Source: a virus (Duplodnaviria > Heunggongvirae > Uroviricota > Caudoviricetes). Taken from it: a stretch of DNA of 37,809 bases. Both the position numbers and the translations under genes were made by a program. This document shows, piece after piece, positions 3,587 through 36,225 of this stretch. Within the stretch, counting starts at the first letter, position 1. Each line of letters opens with the position of its first letter. The stretch lies in the IMG/VR virus record IMGVR_UViG_2602041644_000008, positions 1 to 37,809 of that record; one strand, given 5' to 3'. The notes beneath the pieces are model-generated. The model worked only from the letters and a program-made list of their open reading frames with translations, ran no database searches and was not told the DNA's origin.

Positions 3587-3620
3587 TATCGCTCCTTTAA
3601 CATAAGGATAAATAAACACT

Positions 3621-6112: not shown

Positions 6113-6132
6113 ATTGCATGGAGAAGATTAAG

Positions 6133-6390
6133 ATGCAGCAGTATCACTATCCACTGGAAGACGGATTTACCGAAAGGATTCACACGCCGGGAGGCGTCAG
6201 GTCACTGGTGGAGGGATCGCACTTGATGAAATTACTCCGGGATCTCGATAAGGATGGATTTAATGTCGATGGCCCACTTGCCGAACTGACTGCACTGATT
6301 AACTACGTCACCAGCTCACAGATGTCTATGCAGGATCTGCAAACACATCTCGACTATTGTGCCGAACAATTACGAAAACAAACCACATAA
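6133..6390 (+). CDS. Small protein (85 aa) paralogous to the C-terminal domain of the adjacent Bro-N protein; candidate SOS-induced antirepressor
   Basis: RBS GGAGAAG 7 nt upstream. Residues TPGGVRSLVEGSHLMKLLRDLDKDGFNVDGPLAELTALINYV..DLQTHLDY align with Bro residues SPSGVLGLTENSLLMNLLNQLQEDGHDVSGAAAELTTMFCYI..DIQTHAEY. LexA box upstream. Confidence 0.5.
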   Translation: MQQYHYPLEDGFTERIHTPGGVRSLVEGSHLMKLLRDLDKDGFNVDGPLAELTALINYVTSSQMSMQDLQTHLDYCAEQLRKQTT

Positions 6391-6412
6391 AGAAAAGGCC
6401 GCTAGAGCGGCC
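6391..6412 (-). terminator. Rho-independent terminator (mainly minus strand) after the 6412..7140 gene
   Basis: GGCCGC-TCTA-GCGGCC followed by TTTTCTTT on the minus strand. Confidence 0.5.
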
Positions 6413-7140
6413 TATCGTTTCGCTTTGTGCTCGTCCCAGCACGTTTTGCACCATGCCATTAAGCCATCCGCATTTTGATTATTAGGGTAAAAGCTGGTTC
6501 GTTTTCTGCGGACATTACAAATTGGGCACCACTTCATATGGCGTGTATTCTTTGGACCATCGAGACACCTTGCACACCACTTAGTCAATCCATCTGGATT
6601 TTTTGACGATTTCCTGAATTTTTCATATGGAAGGTTTATTCTGCATCGCAAGCACTGCTTGCTACCACTTGAAACTCTGTTAGCTGATTCTTCTTTTGGC
6701 GGCGATACAGAAGGTATTCTTGCTGGCTCTGATACTGCCTGAGGTGCTTTTTTAGATGACTGAGACGATATGTCATCACCAGGGAATCGTCCATGATATG
6801 CCGGACGCGTTGACACTCCAGGTGGAAGCTCTGCTGTAAATGGCTTTGGCTGAATCAGTTGCCTCTCTTTTGCTAACTCCTGCTGTTTATAATATGTCTG
6901 GATTACCGCACTATCATAAGCAGGAGGTGCGGAAATATTAGGCGCATTACCTCCAGTTTTTTGAAACTGAGTAGAGGTGTGTTCTATCACCTGTGTACGA
7001 TTAATCGTTATCTCCCCATCTTCGGTCTTTATCGTTTTGTTATGATTAACGACCGTACGATCAGAGATCTTAGTCTTGTTCTGGTTGATAACATAAATAA
7101 TCACCGCAACCACACCAACAACTATCCAGAAAACTTCCAT
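6412..7140 (-). CDS. Membrane-anchored protein with Pro/Ser-rich linker and C-terminal tandem CxxC zinc-ribbon repeats (unknown function)
   Basis: Strong RBS GAGGAAAAG. N-terminal TM FWIVVGVVAVIIYVI. C-terminus has two repeats: CLRCRINLPYEKFRKSSKNPDGLTKWCARC and CPICNVRRKRTSFYPNNQNADGLMAWCKTC. Low GC. Confidence 0.6.
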   Translation of the reverse strand: MEVFWIVVGVVAVIIYVINQNKTKISDRTVVNHNKTIKTEDGEITINRTQVIEHTSTQFQKTGGNAPNISAPPAYDSAVIQTYYKQQELAKERQLIQPKPFTAELPPGVSTRPAYHGRFPGDDISSQSSKKAPQAVSEPARIPSVSPPKEESANRVSSGSKQCLRCRINLPYEKFRKSSKNPDGLTKWCARCLDGPKNTRHMKWCPICNVRRKRTSFYPNNQNADGLMAWCKTCWDEHKAKR

Positions 7141-7269: not shown

Positions 7270-7535
7270 TTTACATCGCACTCCTCTTGTGCCATAGTAA
7301 TTGGGCACTGGCAAAATCCAGTGCCGGGATTGGTCTCCCGGATTACTACAGAGGCACATATGCCGCATAAGCGGTTTTTTTATGTGTAAAGCGCACCTAT
7401 TCTATGGTGAGCTGTGTGGGGGCACCGAAAGGTGCGCCGGGTTCCTTTGTAGCCGGTAAGACCAACTCTGCACAGTTCACCACCATCTGATTGGTCTCAG
7501 CGGTGGTGATTAACCTAACTACAAAGGTGATCGCC

Positions 7536-8228
7536 ATGAATACCAAACCTTCCATCTTTTCCTTTGAGTCATCCTGCCAGATCCGTATGTTCATGATTGA
7601 CGGAGAACCTTGGTTTGTCACCAAAGATGTGTGCAATGCTTTGAATATTGATGTTACACAAGCGAGAAAACTTGATAAAAAAGGCTGGAACAAAAAGGGG
7701 CTGTATTCAATACAGACCCCTGGTGGAATACAAGAACTATCCATCGTTTCAGAATCAGGTCTCTACATCCTTATTCTGCGTTGCAAAGAGGCAATGACAG
7801 AGGGAACGAGAGCGTTCAGATTTCTTGAATGGGTTACAGGTGAGGTTCTTCCTCAGATCCGCCGCACCGGAAGTTACATTAAAAACTCGCTCCCGCAGGA
7901 AGAACGCATAAAGATGGTTGCCGACCAGGTAGCCAACGCCACAGCATCAGCAATGATGCAGGCAATGAAGATAGAGAACAAAACCTACAGTGCCCCACTG
8001 AAGCCCGGCTACCGTAGCCTGATTCATTCTCCGTCTGGTGTTCTCGGCCTGACGGAGAACTCACTGCTGATGAATCTGCTGAACCAGTTACAGGAAGACG
8101 GGCACGATGTATCGGGCGCGGCGGCGGAGCTGACCACCATGTTCTGCTACATCGTCGGTGTGAGCAAATGCCTGCGTGATATCCAGACCCACGCGGAGTA
8201 CATCAACGACAAAGCAGGATTCTTCTGA
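7536..8228 (+). CDS. Bro-N domain protein (antirepressor-like, BRO family)
   Basis: Start moved to MNTKPS, which follows AAGGTG-N7-ATG. Bro-N signature FSFE...IRMFMIDGEPWFVTKDVCNALNI. C-terminal domain is paralogous to the 6133 ORF. Confidence 0.7.
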   Translation: MNTKPSIFSFESSCQIRMFMIDGEPWFVTKDVCNALNIDVTQARKLDKKGWNKKGLYSIQTPGGIQELSIVSESGLYILILRCKEAMTEGTRAFRFLEWVTGEVLPQIRRTGSYIKNSLPQEERIKMVADQVANATASAMMQAMKIENKTYSAPLKPGYRSLIHSPSGVLGLTENSLLMNLLNQLQEDGHDVSGAAAELTTMFCYIVGVSKCLRDIQTHAEYINDKAGFF

Positions 8229-8299
8229 CGGGCGGCGGCACAGGGATGTGCCTTTAAATAATTCTGTACAGATTGCAGACCGGGGGTGAATAGCGTACT

Positions 8300-8316
8300 A
8301 TTACCTTAAAGGTAAA
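8300..8316. promoter_or_regulatory. Operator dyad ATTACCTTAAAGGTAAA
   Basis: Immediately upstream of the promoter/RBS of the 8358 ORF. Confidence 0.55.
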
Positions 8317-8357
8317 CCTGTTTTTATTTTATACCTGTAACTTACCGGAGATTAAAG

Positions 8358-8684
8358 ATGACAAAACTTGGATTCGTGATGAGAGGTCCGGTAAGAAGCG
8401 GAACTCATGCAAAGCGTAGCAAGAGTCGTATTTTTACTGGTAAGGTTGTAGCACGTAAATCAGCTATTGGCTCGTTCAATAGTGAAAATGCGGCATTGCG
8501 CCATATTTTTATCAGCACAAAGCCAAGAGCATCCGCTGATGTGCATACAATGTCTATTCCTATCACAAAGAATATCAAGCGGATAAAAAAGCTCTCATCT
8601 GCAGAATCAAAAGAGATATCTTTCCGCCAGCTTAACTCATTAGAAACGCATATGAAGGAAGAGGAATTCGATGTTTTTGAGTGA
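8358..8684 (+). CDS. Basic 108-aa protein, first gene of a two-gene operon (putative antitoxin partner)
   Basis: RBS GGAGATTAAAG-ATG. Overlaps the downstream gene by 14 nt. No recognisable domain. Confidence 0.35.
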   Translation: MTKLGFVMRGPVRSGTHAKRSKSRIFTGKVVARKSAIGSFNSENAALRHIFISTKPRASADVHTMSIPITKNIKRIKKLSSAESKEISFRQLNSLETHMKEEEFDVFE

Positions 8685-9183
8685 GTATAGCGGGAAGGTT
8701 ATACCTACTGGTGAGTTTAAAACTGATGACTTTCTGATTTCGCTAAAAGATGCTTTTAAACAACACTGGCGTCATGGTCATCATCCTGATCTGGGAAAAG
8801 ATACTCTTTTTGAAAGACCAGACGAAGTATTAGGCTTCCATCTCAGAAAGGTTCATGTCAATATTGGTGAATATGCATCATATTCATACTCATGTACTGA
8901 ACAGTGTTGGGATGAGTGGTCATATGGATTGATTGATGAACAAGGAAATTACAGGCCAAAACCAACCAGTAACGCATATCTCATATATGCAGTCAATGAA
9001 ATAAGAGATGCAGCCTTACTAGCTTATTGGGACCCGCCCGCACACACCAAAGCTAACGCAAAAGTTTGGATGGATTCCGTATTGAATTTCACAAAATTAT
9101 TTCATGAACGAACTAATACAGCTCCACTTAGTAGAAATGTTTATCCGTGGGATTATTCGTACAAATCCAAAAAGCCTGCATAG
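8671..9183 (+). CDS. YafO-like toxin family protein (candidate type II TA toxin)
   Basis: RBS GGAAGAGGA. Segments HPDLGKDTLFERPDE, FHLRKVHVNIGE, NAYLIYAV and ALLAYWDPPAH parallel E. coli YafO motifs (LPDIFGRDALYDD, FERVAHIHLANE, AHLVYC, LLIAILKPEPH). Comparison is from memory only. Confidence 0.4.
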   Translation: MFLSEYSGKVIPTGEFKTDDFLISLKDAFKQHWRHGHHPDLGKDTLFERPDEVLGFHLRKVHVNIGEYASYSYSCTEQCWDEWSYGLIDEQGNYRPKPTSNAYLIYAVNEIRDAALLAYWDPPAHTKANAKVWMDSVLNFTKLFHERTNTAPLSRNVYPWDYSYKSKKPA

Positions 9184-9264
9184 TAGTTTTTTATGGACGA
9201 AACAAAAGTCAGTGCTACACTCATTGACGCCACATTGAGGTGGCTTATAGATGGAAATTTCACA

Positions 9265-9426
9265 ATGAAAAAAGCATTTGCTGCACTGTTCGTTTTGTTG
9301 TCTCTGGTAGCTTCAACTCAGGCCTTTGCCGGTCGTTGTCAGCACGACAGCGATACTGCCGCTGACGGCTCCCGCTGCGGTGGGCGTTCTGCGGATTCCC
9401 GCCCGGGCGGCGGTGGCATTCGTTAA
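9265..9426 (+). CDS. Small secreted peptide (signal peptide MKKAFAALFVLLSLVASTQAFA plus 31-aa Gly/Ser/Asp-rich part with 2 Cys)
   Basis: Internal ATG of tracked ORF 9193..9426. A 5-codon uORF (MEISQ, 9251..9268) with SD GAGGTGG overlaps this start as ATGA. Start site uncertain. Confidence 0.3.
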   Translation: MKKAFAALFVLLSLVASTQAFAGRCQHDSDTAADGSRCGGRSADSRPGGGGIR

Positions 9427-9455
9427 AAACAAGGCCGCGAAAGCGGCCTGTTTGA
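9425..9455. terminator. Bidirectional terminator between convergent genes
   Basis: AAAAACAA-GGCCGC-GAAA-GCGGCC-TGTTTG. Confidence 0.6.
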
Positions 9456-10307
9456 TCACTGTGCAGTTTTCGCTGATCGATTTTCAGCTCTAAATTCAAG
9501 AACCGTTTCAATATTTCTTTCCTTCAGCATATCAATAACATTTTTATTCACTTGACTATCACTGGTTAATAACTGGTAAACGTTGCTTCTCTCTTTATCA
9601 GAGTTTTCTTTAACAGCTGCTTTGCATGCCAAATGCTTATTGAAATTTTCTACATCGCTAGTACAGGAATTTACGGCTGCTGATGAAATATCAGACGCTG
9701 AAGAAACACCATCATCCAAACGTTTTATAGCATTTTCTATACATGAGTTAAGGGAATAAACGACAACTGAGCGATACCCTTCAGACGCACACCATTCTAA
9801 ATTTCTTGAAGGATCGAGTGGTTTTACTTCGCTGGATTGAATTAACTTGTCAAAAACTGACTTATATTCAATCTGTTTTTTATCTATAGCCCATACTTCA
9901 GTAGCTGATTTATAATTCCCCGTATGCCTATTAACATCAAATCCATGTTTTATAAGCAAATCTGCCCATGAAAGATTTATTGATTCATTGTTATGAGGCC
10001 ATTTTCCTGTCAGAACCGCCCCCATAGACCCCATATATCCGCCATATGATGGTATAGCACCATGGCTCAGTAACTTCTCAGCAACCACAGGGCAATTAAT
10101 TACATAAGAGGCGTAAAGCCCATTCCATAAAGCCCCTCTATAGTAATCGCCACGATTAGGTTCTTTTAAGTCGATAGCCTTTGATAATTGTTCACACGTT
10201 TTGCATGCATCAAAGTTATCCTTATTGCATTGCAATGAACTGGCAGCTGTAGGATTTACAGAGACTATTGAAAGCACTATGCCAAAAAACAAATTTATTT
10301 TTTTCAT
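9456..10307 (-). CDS. Secreted Cys-rich protein (283 aa) with ankyrin-like repeat signatures; last gene of the virion operon
   Basis: Signal peptide MKKINLFFGIVLSIVSVNPTAASS. 10 Cys. LLSHGAIP and LLIKHGFDVNRH resemble ankyrin repeat ends. Start is 1 nt after the stop of the gp16-like gene. Low GC. Confidence 0.5.
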   Translation of the reverse strand: MKKINLFFGIVLSIVSVNPTAASSLQCNKDNFDACKTCEQLSKAIDLKEPNRGDYYRGALWNGLYASYVINCPVVAEKLLSHGAIPSYGGYMGSMGAVLTGKWPHNNESINLSWADLLIKHGFDVNRHTGNYKSATEVWAIDKKQIEYKSVFDKLIQSSEVKPLDPSRNLEWCASEGYRSVVVYSLNSCIENAIKRLDDGVSSASDISSAAVNSCTSDVENFNKHLACKAAVKENSDKERSNVYQLLTSDSQVNKNVIDMLKERNIETVLEFRAENRSAKTAQ

Positions 10308-35640: not shown

Positions 35641-36225
35641 ATGAAAAGTATCCAGGACGTCCGCAGGCAAAATCTCAACGACTTGATCGACCGTGAATTC
35701 AATGGTGTTCAGACGCGGATGGCTGAAAAACTTGGAACTCAGGCAAATCTGGTAAACCGCTGGGCTCTTGGCAAGAAGGTTATCGGCGACCAGGTTGCGC
35801 GAAAAATTGAAGCTGCCGCCAATAAACCCCGTAACTGGCTTGATATCGATCGCTCGCTTTCTCAGGAAGGTTTTCAGCCTGTCGGACCAAGCGACATTGG
35901 TCAACTGGCGGCTCACAACCTGGAACGCTGGATGAGCGAAAGCCGCGACCTTTCAACGCAGGGAAAACTTCACCGCGCATCCGGCGTCGCCCAGGTAACA
36001 ATCAGCCGCCTGTTAAACAATGAGGTCAGCGTTTCCATTTCCACCCTGGAGAATGTTGCATCCGCATTTGGGCGTCACGGATATGAATTACTGATTCACC
36101 CGCACGACCCCGCGACTATCAACTATGACCGCTCGCGCTACGCATTGTTACCTGAAACAGAGAAGGCAAAGATCGAAAGTTACATTGAATTTGTCATCAA
36201 CCAGAACGAAAAAAACAAACAATAA
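35641..36225 (+). CDS. Prophage repressor, two XRE-type HTH domains, no S24/LexA-like peptidase domain
   Basis: HTH1 TRMAEKLGTQANLVNRWALGKK. HTH2 LHRASGVAQVTISRLLNNEVSVSISTLENVASAFG. No Ser/Lys autocleavage module. Divergent from cro with three operators. Confidence 0.65.
   Translation: MKSIQDVRRQNLNDLIDREFNGVQTRMAEKLGTQANLVNRWALGKKVIGDQVARKIEAAANKPRNWLDIDRSLSQEGFQPVGPSDIGQLAAHNLERWMSESRDLSTQGKLHRASGVAQVTISRLLNNEVSVSISTLENVASAFGRHGYELLIHPHDPATINYDRSRYALLPETEKAKIESYIEFVINQNEKNKQ

Follow-up and report, generated by a model that had tools for sequence, protein, structure and literature searches.

Is an overlapping gene pair that resembles a type II toxin-antitoxin (TA) module, when carried by a prophage, an autonomous locus governed by its own antitoxin, or is it governed by the phage? 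The question is raised by two open reading frames (ORFs), hereafter called A and T, in IMG/VR virus record IMGVR_UViG_2602041644_000008, a member of the Caudoviricetes analyzed here from position 1 to 37,809 (this whole stretch of 37,809 nucleotides is hereafter called the window). An initial annotation, made from the letters alone, had proposed a prophage-borne TA pair with a YafO-like toxin at this place, and this proposal is borne out in part. Our analysis favors, with a probability of roughly 0.6, the reading that A and T form a repressor-gated, two-gene accessory cassette of a Uetakevirus prophage in the style of type II TA systems, composed of a YafO-type RNase and a neutralizing partner. 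The identification of the toxin adds nothing new, because automated RefSeq annotation already uses the YafO name; what appears to be new is that the cassette would be under the phage's own repressor. The unusual features of the locus are limited to this wiring of repressor and operator and to the architecture of cassette exchange.

A Long-Form Member of the YafO Superfamily

An ORF scan returned both genes on the plus strand, with the boundaries and the 14-nt overlap exactly as the initial annotation had claimed (table 1). Gene A is preceded by a Shine-Dalgarno region, TACCGGAGAT, that is kept in nearly all homologous loci, whereas that of gene T falls inside gene A, near its 3' end; the position of this signal (8655-8665), together with the overlap at 8671-8684, points to translational coupling of the two genes. 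At this signal, ATG AAG GAA GAR is nucleotide-invariant among divergent homologues. An RNA antitoxin of type I or III was considered and rejected, there being no tandem or direct repeats upstream of the pair or inside it and no Rfam match.

The sole Pfam match of T is PF13957 (YafO_toxin; E = 9.5e-4, profile positions 7-100 of 101), the family that the initial annotation had named, yet the match stays under the gathering threshold. The clade members that are 66-82% identical to T match PF13957 and no other family in 13 of 13 cases (best E = 2e-5), and gp44 of TL-2011b, which shares 33% identity with T (E = 9e-27), passes the 25-bit Pfam cutoff with 26.3 bits. When a hidden Markov model (HMM) of the clade was run against 1.84 billion representative proteins, just 53 were retrieved at E <= 1e-3, among them short PF13957 members scoring 49-81 bits on that profile, which were found at E = 6e-7 to 3e-4. 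Alignment of the clade with E. coli YafO and four canonical YafOs drawn from these short proteins gave 99.0% probability in hhalign (E = 6.5e-18, 114 columns). The four motifs cited in the initial annotation, namely HPDLGKDTLFERPDE (residues 38-52), FHLRKVHVNIGE (56-67), AYLIYAV (102-108) and ALLAYWDPPAH (115-125), are all present in T and match blocks of E. coli K-12 YafO in a 43-sequence alignment. Residues F29, G42, H62 (nt 8854-8856) and H125 (nt 9043-9045) are invariant in these 43 sequences, K-12 YafO included, and in the long-form set the same holds for Y106; the FGxD motif and both histidines are invariant in long and short forms alike. T, with 170 aa, is longer than the 132-aa YafO in two places: an insertion peculiar to the clade, which contains a C..CW..W segment, spans about residues 64-98 (nt 8860-8964), and the C-terminus is extended over about residues 149-170.

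An AlphaFold model built from a 45-sequence alignment keeps the core fold intact at high model confidence (the 13 close sequences alone gave an unusable model, with a predicted local distance difference test score, pLDDT, of 49.7). T is predicted by this model to have the RelE/HigB-type microbial RNase fold, although its sequence identity to the mRNA interferases HigB, RelE, YafQ and YoeB is 8-18% and it has extra structural elements. Profile homology, the predicted RelE fold and RefSeq naming agree in bearing out the YafO-like identity, and T is, as judged from its sequence, a divergent long-form member of the YafO superfamily. The RefSeq (PGAP) name of the gene identical to T is 'type II toxin-antitoxin system YafO family toxin', and T occurs at an identity of at least 99% in 69 of 5,426 complete E. 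coli genomes, always on the chromosome and with a 'hypothetical protein' upstream. T has no relevant NCBIfam match, PHROGs list both A and T under unknown function, and in the literature we found no member of the long-form clade with an experimental test.

The yafNO pair of E. coli is a proven TA locus, in which YafO cleaved only translated mRNA (PMC2814082). Transcriptome-wide mapping of YafO cleavage showed no bias for codon position or the 5' end (PMC8546651), and for this reason ribosome dependence should not be assumed for YafO.

A Copy of the Phage-Wide Operator Ahead of the Gene Pair

The window is a prophage of the phiV10/epsilon15-like type (Uetakevirus), with flanking DNA matching that of EC.W1-9, TL-2011b, ZX5, phiv142-3 and phiV10; this flanking DNA and the phiV10-type repressor support the prophage origin given in the initial annotation. 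The CI-type repressor (35641-36225, 194 aa) matches the phiV10 repressor and ORF21 of ZX5 at 100% identity; overexpression of ORF21 blocked the lytic cycle (PMC9782041). The repressor gene diverges, across a 154-nt region with three tandem operators, from a cro-like gene on the minus strand (35486 to 35256, 76 aa). The protein contains two helix-turn-helix regions, one weakly YdaS/Cro-like (residues 21-61) and one of the HTH_3 type (residues 106-147). The S24 peptidase domain is absent from its 194 residues, so that induction via the Bro-N antirepressor fits better than self-cleavage.

The palindrome that lies between the candidate promoter and gene A (8300-8316) is one copy of a phage-wide operator with the consensus ATTACC-N5-GGTAAT. 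With at most one mismatch to TTACC-N5-GGTAA, the window contains 16 copies, where 0.67 would be expected and none of 100 shuffled sequences had more than 4, and these copies stand before nearly every transcription unit of the window (table 1). One repressor thus appears to silence many separate promoters and not just an OL/OR pair. The RefSeq record of epsilon15 annotates seven 'protein_bind: repressor, lysogeny' sites, all of which read (A)TTACC-N5-GGTAAT; nearly all phage loci with the cassette contain the motif 2-5 times as well. Since the TTACC and GGTAA arms are kept while the 5-nt spacer varies among homologues of the cassette, the palindrome has the character of a protein-binding site. 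The candidate promoter next to it agrees with the sigma-70 consensus at 7 of 12 positions, and its -10 element and the operator share 2 nt; an analogous TTGnnn-17/18-TAnnnT arrangement is found at the same place in divergent loci (TAATAT in L018, TATATT in L029). Of the operator-bearing promoter described in the initial annotation, then, the palindrome is real, but it is a genus-wide repressor operator and probably not a private autoregulatory site of a TA pair.

This distinction bears directly on the account in which A and T are a classical autoregulated type II TA module, with A binding the palindrome and the pair expressed constitutively in the lysogen for addiction or abortive infection. 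The gene order, the overlap and the toxin family are indeed typical of type II modules, and the proximal promoter of yafNO is under YafN autoregulation (PMC2814082). The palindrome accompanies the cassette in a non-Uetakevirus island (L005/L006), but in EC.W1-9 and TL-2011b it stands ahead of cassettes that are unrelated, first genes included, and its 15 other copies in the phage include those of the cI/cro region, in keeping with the annotated repressor sites of epsilon15. Similarly, the N-terminus of A is conserved and very basic, which speaks for this account, but A shows no recognizable DNA-binding fold and is hypervariable past residue 25. We therefore regard autoregulation as improbable, and do not take the palindrome to be the antitoxin's own operator as the leading reading, given its genome-wide spread and its presence before unrelated cassettes.

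The cassettes of the Serratia type (L008/L010, at about 3590-3605, and L028) present a second, shorter palindrome about 55 nt upstream of the main operator, ATACC-TTAA-GGTAT or, in L028, ATACC-TCAA-GGTAT, which may be an auxiliary or variant operator.

The Partner Protein as a Putative Antitoxin

The product of gene A, which the initial annotation had called a basic protein, is basic in its N-terminus (net charge +7) and its middle part (+9), but not in its last 30 residues (-5). Both the basic N-terminus (MTKLGFVMRG..KRxK) and the acidic C-terminal tail, ISFRQLNSLETHMKEEEFDVFE, are conserved, and the part between them is hypervariable. A belongs to no Pfam, NCBIfam or PADLOC family, its sole Pfam match being DUF1319 at chance level, and comparison with antitoxin families, as the initial annotation had proposed, found neither Phd/YefM nor any other known domain. 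The relatives of A form 25 clusters, all from Enterobacterales, all 'hypothetical' and none with a Pfam domain. No DNA-binding domain was detected in A, and by its domain content A is not an antitoxin of the YafN/Phd type. A likeness of its tail to that of YafN, seen by eye (…YLNDMTDDDFNDFKE versus …QLNSLETHMKEEEFDVFE), was discarded after hhalign gave E = 0.19 and a probability of 0.3%.

The pairing of the two genes goes far beyond chance. An overlapping upstream ORF is present in 32 of the 32 full-length toxin loci examined (the window and 31 others), with an overlap of 14 nt in all 30 loci of the clade at 66% identity or more (window included), 11 nt in the clade at 44% identity and 26 nt in TL-2011b; the neighbors of the paired loci are Bro-N, pRha, Arc/immI or AlpA-integrase genes. 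More distant relatives of the toxin have a small gene directly 5' in six of six cases, each time a partner different from A, the products ranging from 36 aa (cut by a contig end) to 84 aa. (The Psychrobacter matches L013 and L014 are short fragments with no intact ORF.) Pairwise comparison of eight paired loci gives a mean identity of 72% in T and of 49% in A, and within A it amounts to 58% in the N-terminal 25 residues, 31% in the middle and 68% in the C-terminal 30 residues. The tail has the consensus …LSFRMLNSLEDRMKEExFDVFE and is still recognizable, as …LSDRMYSRTLEEMQGEMYDDAE, in the partners of the 44% clade, which have 152-171 aa and are unrelated to A apart from this tail. Conserved codons of A show synonymous changes, indicating constraint at the protein level. 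A thus evolves faster than T, in a modular fashion and with a conserved C-terminal segment that keeps pace with the toxin, which is the pattern of type II antitoxins. In view of the invariant pairing, the translational coupling, the faster evolution and the conserved acidic tail, it is plausible that A would be the antitoxin of T.

Could A instead be a regulator, an adaptor or a sensor, leaving T as a host shut-off nuclease of the lytic phase that, like lambda kil, is controlled by the repressor only? The lack of homology between A and any antitoxin family would fit, as would the free swapping of N-terminal and middle parts between clades and the fact that the cassette lies under a repressor operator as do the lytic genes of the phage. 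Each of more than 35 toxin homologues examined nevertheless has a small gene directly upstream, usually overlapping, and the C-terminal tail is conserved at about the rate of the toxin, which together with constant pairing is a hallmark of physically interacting partners; an RNase of the RelE fold would, moreover, be hard to keep unneutralized under leaky expression. These considerations make a function of A other than neutralization rather unlikely. Still less likely is that T has kept the YafO/RelE fold and become a ribosome- or RNA-binding modulator or an anti-defense factor, with the insertion of about 35 residues and the extension of about 22 carrying the new function, for in spite of these additions, the sub-threshold Pfam score and the small size of the family (53 representatives), both histidines and FGxD are invariant in long and short forms, the core fold is intact in a model of high confidence and the obligatory partner gene points to a dangerous activity.

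Exchange of the Cassette

The segment that carries the operator and the gene pair has a distribution of its own. The non-Uetakevirus island L005 shares with the window only 8293-9196, and by blastn the swapped segment extends over 8318-9186 in comparison with TL-2011b and over 8271-9186 in comparison with EC.W1-9; operator, A and T thus make up a mobile unit. The slot is an exchange hotspot: in TL-2011b it holds genes for a 59-aa protein and a 181-aa 'YafO family toxin' (PGAP), in EC.W1-9 (L002 3451-4252) an unrelated overlapping pair encoding 108 aa and a 167-aa DUF2335 membrane protein, and in phiV10 it is almost empty. The same palindrome lies ahead of the unrelated cassettes of both EC.W1-9 and TL-2011b, and the operator may serve as a patch of homology for cassette exchange, since the junction in TL-2011b falls directly after it. 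The gp45-gp44 pair of TL-2011b also has in common with the window the upstream backbone, the downstream small-protein gene and a toxin of the long form; its partner is unrelated in sequence to A except for a vaguely similar C-terminal end, and its genes overlap by more.

Several related cassettes were seen in the same comparison. The DUF2335 pair of EC.W1-9 has a repressor-operator copy of its own, TTACCcgattGGTAA, and may be another cassette of the toxic or defense type. EC.W1-9 also contains a second YafO-like pair on the minus strand (L002 1278-2193), with a toxin 47% identical to T, a 139-aa partner and an 11-nt overlap; the corresponding slot of the window (6412-7140) encodes a 242-aa protein (PHROG 6762) with an N-terminal membrane segment, repeated Zn-ribbon/HNH-like motifs and weak matches to Stc1 and endonuclease VII. 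Distant long-form YafO pairs are found between tail-assembly and tape-measure genes of a siphovirus-like contig (L039 2317-3070) and, in a prophage, adjoining genes for an OspG-like kinase and a Bro-N protein (L044 2263-4181).

Evidence Against a Repressor-Gated Toxin-Antitoxin Cassette

A number of results weigh against reading the locus as a repressor-gated cassette of toxin and antitoxin. With regard to T, its 19.7 bits miss the PF13957 cutoff of 25 bits, BLASTP found no significant similarity to YafO of E. coli K-12 (E = 1.6), and Foldseek found no significant match of the model in the PDB or BFVD. Since phmmer searches of PDB sequences returned no match for T and none for YafO either, there is no solved YafO structure by which the active site could be confirmed. 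With regard to A, it has no detectable homology to any antitoxin, and an HMM of its tail did not retrieve YafN; neither A nor T matches any defense-system model of PADLOC at E <= 1. Upstream of the genes, a strict sigma-70 scan of 8150-9500 called no promoter, the consensus match described above being weak. The operator would plug the cassette into the immunity circuit of the prophage, but occupancy of the single site and the strength of repression are inferred from where the operator lies, and the epsilon15 sites are annotations of a record. Finally, repression in the lysogen is probably partial, because new lysogens would be poisoned if silencing were complete and the antitoxin labile.

Genomic Surroundings

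The coordinates of the cassette, its signals and its neighbors are collected in table 1. The hairpin that follows the antirepressor gene was not called by a strict terminator scan; a counterpart is found in L004-L007 and L018, and it may be a weak terminator, shielding the cassette in part from the transcript of ant. On the other side, the gene at 9265-9426 is 100% identical in TL-2011b and EC.W1-9, where it follows their differing cassettes; it is a backbone gene and probably the last of the cassette transcript. The hairpin beyond it separates this plus-strand operon from the convergent virion genes of the minus strand.

Table 1. Coordinates of the gene pair, its signals, the operator copies and neighboring features in the window
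Feature	Position	Strand	Basis or remark
Bro-N antirepressor gene	7491..8228	+	Upstream neighbor of the cassette
GC-rich hairpin GGCACAgggaTGTGCC	8237..8252	+	Just 3' of the Bro-N antirepressor stop, then TTTAAAT
Candidate weak sigma-70 promoter	TTGCAG 8273-8278, 17 nt, TACTAT 8296-8301	+	Manual reading
Mobile cassette (-10 and operator, 5' untranslated region, A, T)	8293..9196	+	blastn; common to AlpA-integrase island L005
17-bp palindrome A-TTACC-TTAAA-GGTAA-A	8300..8316	.	42 nt upstream of the ATG of gene A
Shine-Dalgarno of gene A, GGAG	8347..8350	+	7 nt 5' of ATG; read from sequence
Gene A, putative antitoxin, 108 aa	8358..8684	+	ORF; PHROG 5933, function unknown
Shine-Dalgarno of gene T, purine-rich AAGGAAGAGGA	8655..8665	+	Inside the 3' end of gene A
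Gene T, long-form YafO-family, putative endoribonuclease of predicted RelE fold, 170 aa	8671..9183	+	
Gene for 53-aa secreted or membrane-anchored protein	9265..9426	+	PHROG 3117/14503
GC-rich terminator-like hairpin AGGCCGCgaaaGCGGCCT	9432..9449	.	Terminator scan; equivalent annotated terminator in phiV10
Operator copies (all 16)	2187, 2942, 6041, 7161, 7254, 8301, 25435, 28562, 28580, 33178, 33240, 35186, 35523, 35571, 36283, 36345		At most one mismatch to TTACC-N5-GGTAA
Operators ahead of the antirepressor gene	7161, 7254		
Operators ahead of terS	28562, 28580		
Operators ahead of the Holliday junction resolvase gene	33178, 33240		
Operator ahead of the replication genes	35186		
Operators in the 154-nt gap between cro-like and CI-type genes	35523, 35571, ~35554		~35554 is a two-mismatch copy read from sequence and not counted in the 16
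Operators downstream of the repressor gene	36283, 36345		

Some further features of the region deserve mention. Within the hypervariable middle of gene A lies an antisense ORF (8405-8578, minus strand, 57 aa) with a hydrophobic N-terminus, and on the same strand a weak terminator-like hairpin (8503-8491); both are probably due to chance, because the region is not conserved among homologues. Between the cassette and the gene for a 1129-aa virion protein sits a minus-strand gene (9456-10307) for a 283-aa protein with a signal peptide, assigned to PHROG 6118 (unknown function) and with no Pfam match, which EC.W1-9 has too. The C-terminal module of the antirepressor, corresponding to residues 162-245 of the Bro-N protein, recurs as a stand-alone 90-aa protein encoded at 6118-6390 on the plus strand (phrog_450/15539), and the segment 7995-8251 aligns in inverted orientation, at 96% identity, with the end of the ant gene of TL-2011b on its 3' side (L001 4479-4735). 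This module seems to have been shuffled between genes.

Comparison with Known Systems

T resembles YafO of the E. coli YafN-YafO pair in belonging to the PF13957 superfamily, with FGxD and two invariant histidines, and the antitoxin gene precedes the toxin gene in both loci. The partners differ, A lacking the Phd/YefM domain by which YafN matches PF02604, and so does the junction of the genes, which overlap here but lie 2 nt apart in E. coli. The yafNO genes are driven by a promoter autoregulated by YafN and by the SOS-controlled dinB promoter (PMC2814082), and because of the latter, wiring to a signal for de-repression has a precedent in the YafO family; there the signal is the SOS response acting through the dinB promoter, whereas here it would be release of the prophage repressor operator. 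Unlike yafNO, moreover, the cassette is a phage-borne mobile unit in an accessory slot between Bro-N and virion genes, with no dinB operon and no LexA box. In having a potentially host-toxic gene behind a promoter with an operator of the prophage repressor, the locus is also similar to repressor-gated accessory genes and to host-killing genes of the lambda type such as kil under pL, from which it differs by its own putative neutralizer and small promoter and by being exchangeable and outside the early operon.

A Model for the Cassette and its Implications

Under the reading that we prefer, that of a TA-style cassette gated by the prophage repressor, T would most likely arrest growth by cleaving mRNA, as its homology to YafO and the predicted RelE/HigB-type RNase fold with two invariant histidines suggest, and A would most likely neutralize T by binding it directly through the conserved acidic C-terminal segment of about 30 residues. 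The position of the operator at the promoter suggests that the repressor, bound to ATTACC-N5-GGTAAT beside the putative -10 element, would keep the cassette low in the lysogen, and that infection or induction would de-repress it along with other phage promoters. The most likely role is then that of an RNase module acting around the lysogeny-to-lytic switch, for instance in host shut-off or the exclusion of competitors. A defense of the abortive-infection type could likewise arise from basal expression in the lysogen, whereas classical addiction in the manner of plasmids seems less likely.

As a more speculative proposal, which we advance with some reserve and hold to be possible but doubtful, the antitoxin family may have given up DNA binding, with control passing to the master repressor via a single immunity operator. 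If this were true, the shared operator would be the common plug by which Uetakeviruses connect interchangeable accessory cassettes: in one slot two different YafO-like pairs and the DUF2335 pair, and in another slot a third pair of the YafO-like kind. The RNase would then be freed at the lysogeny-to-lytic switch or upon infection, and not by antitoxin decay and autoregulation.

With 53 members among 1.84 billion representatives, the long-form YafO clade is a small branch with sharp limits, and nearly all of it is carried by phages. Its partner family is unannotated, and the combination of a conserved acidic tail with freely swapped N-terminal parts offers a clean system for mapping how YafO toxins are neutralized. 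Toxic cassettes that bear operators of the prophage repressor suggest firing on infection or induction, and this bears on what the TA modules of prophages are for.

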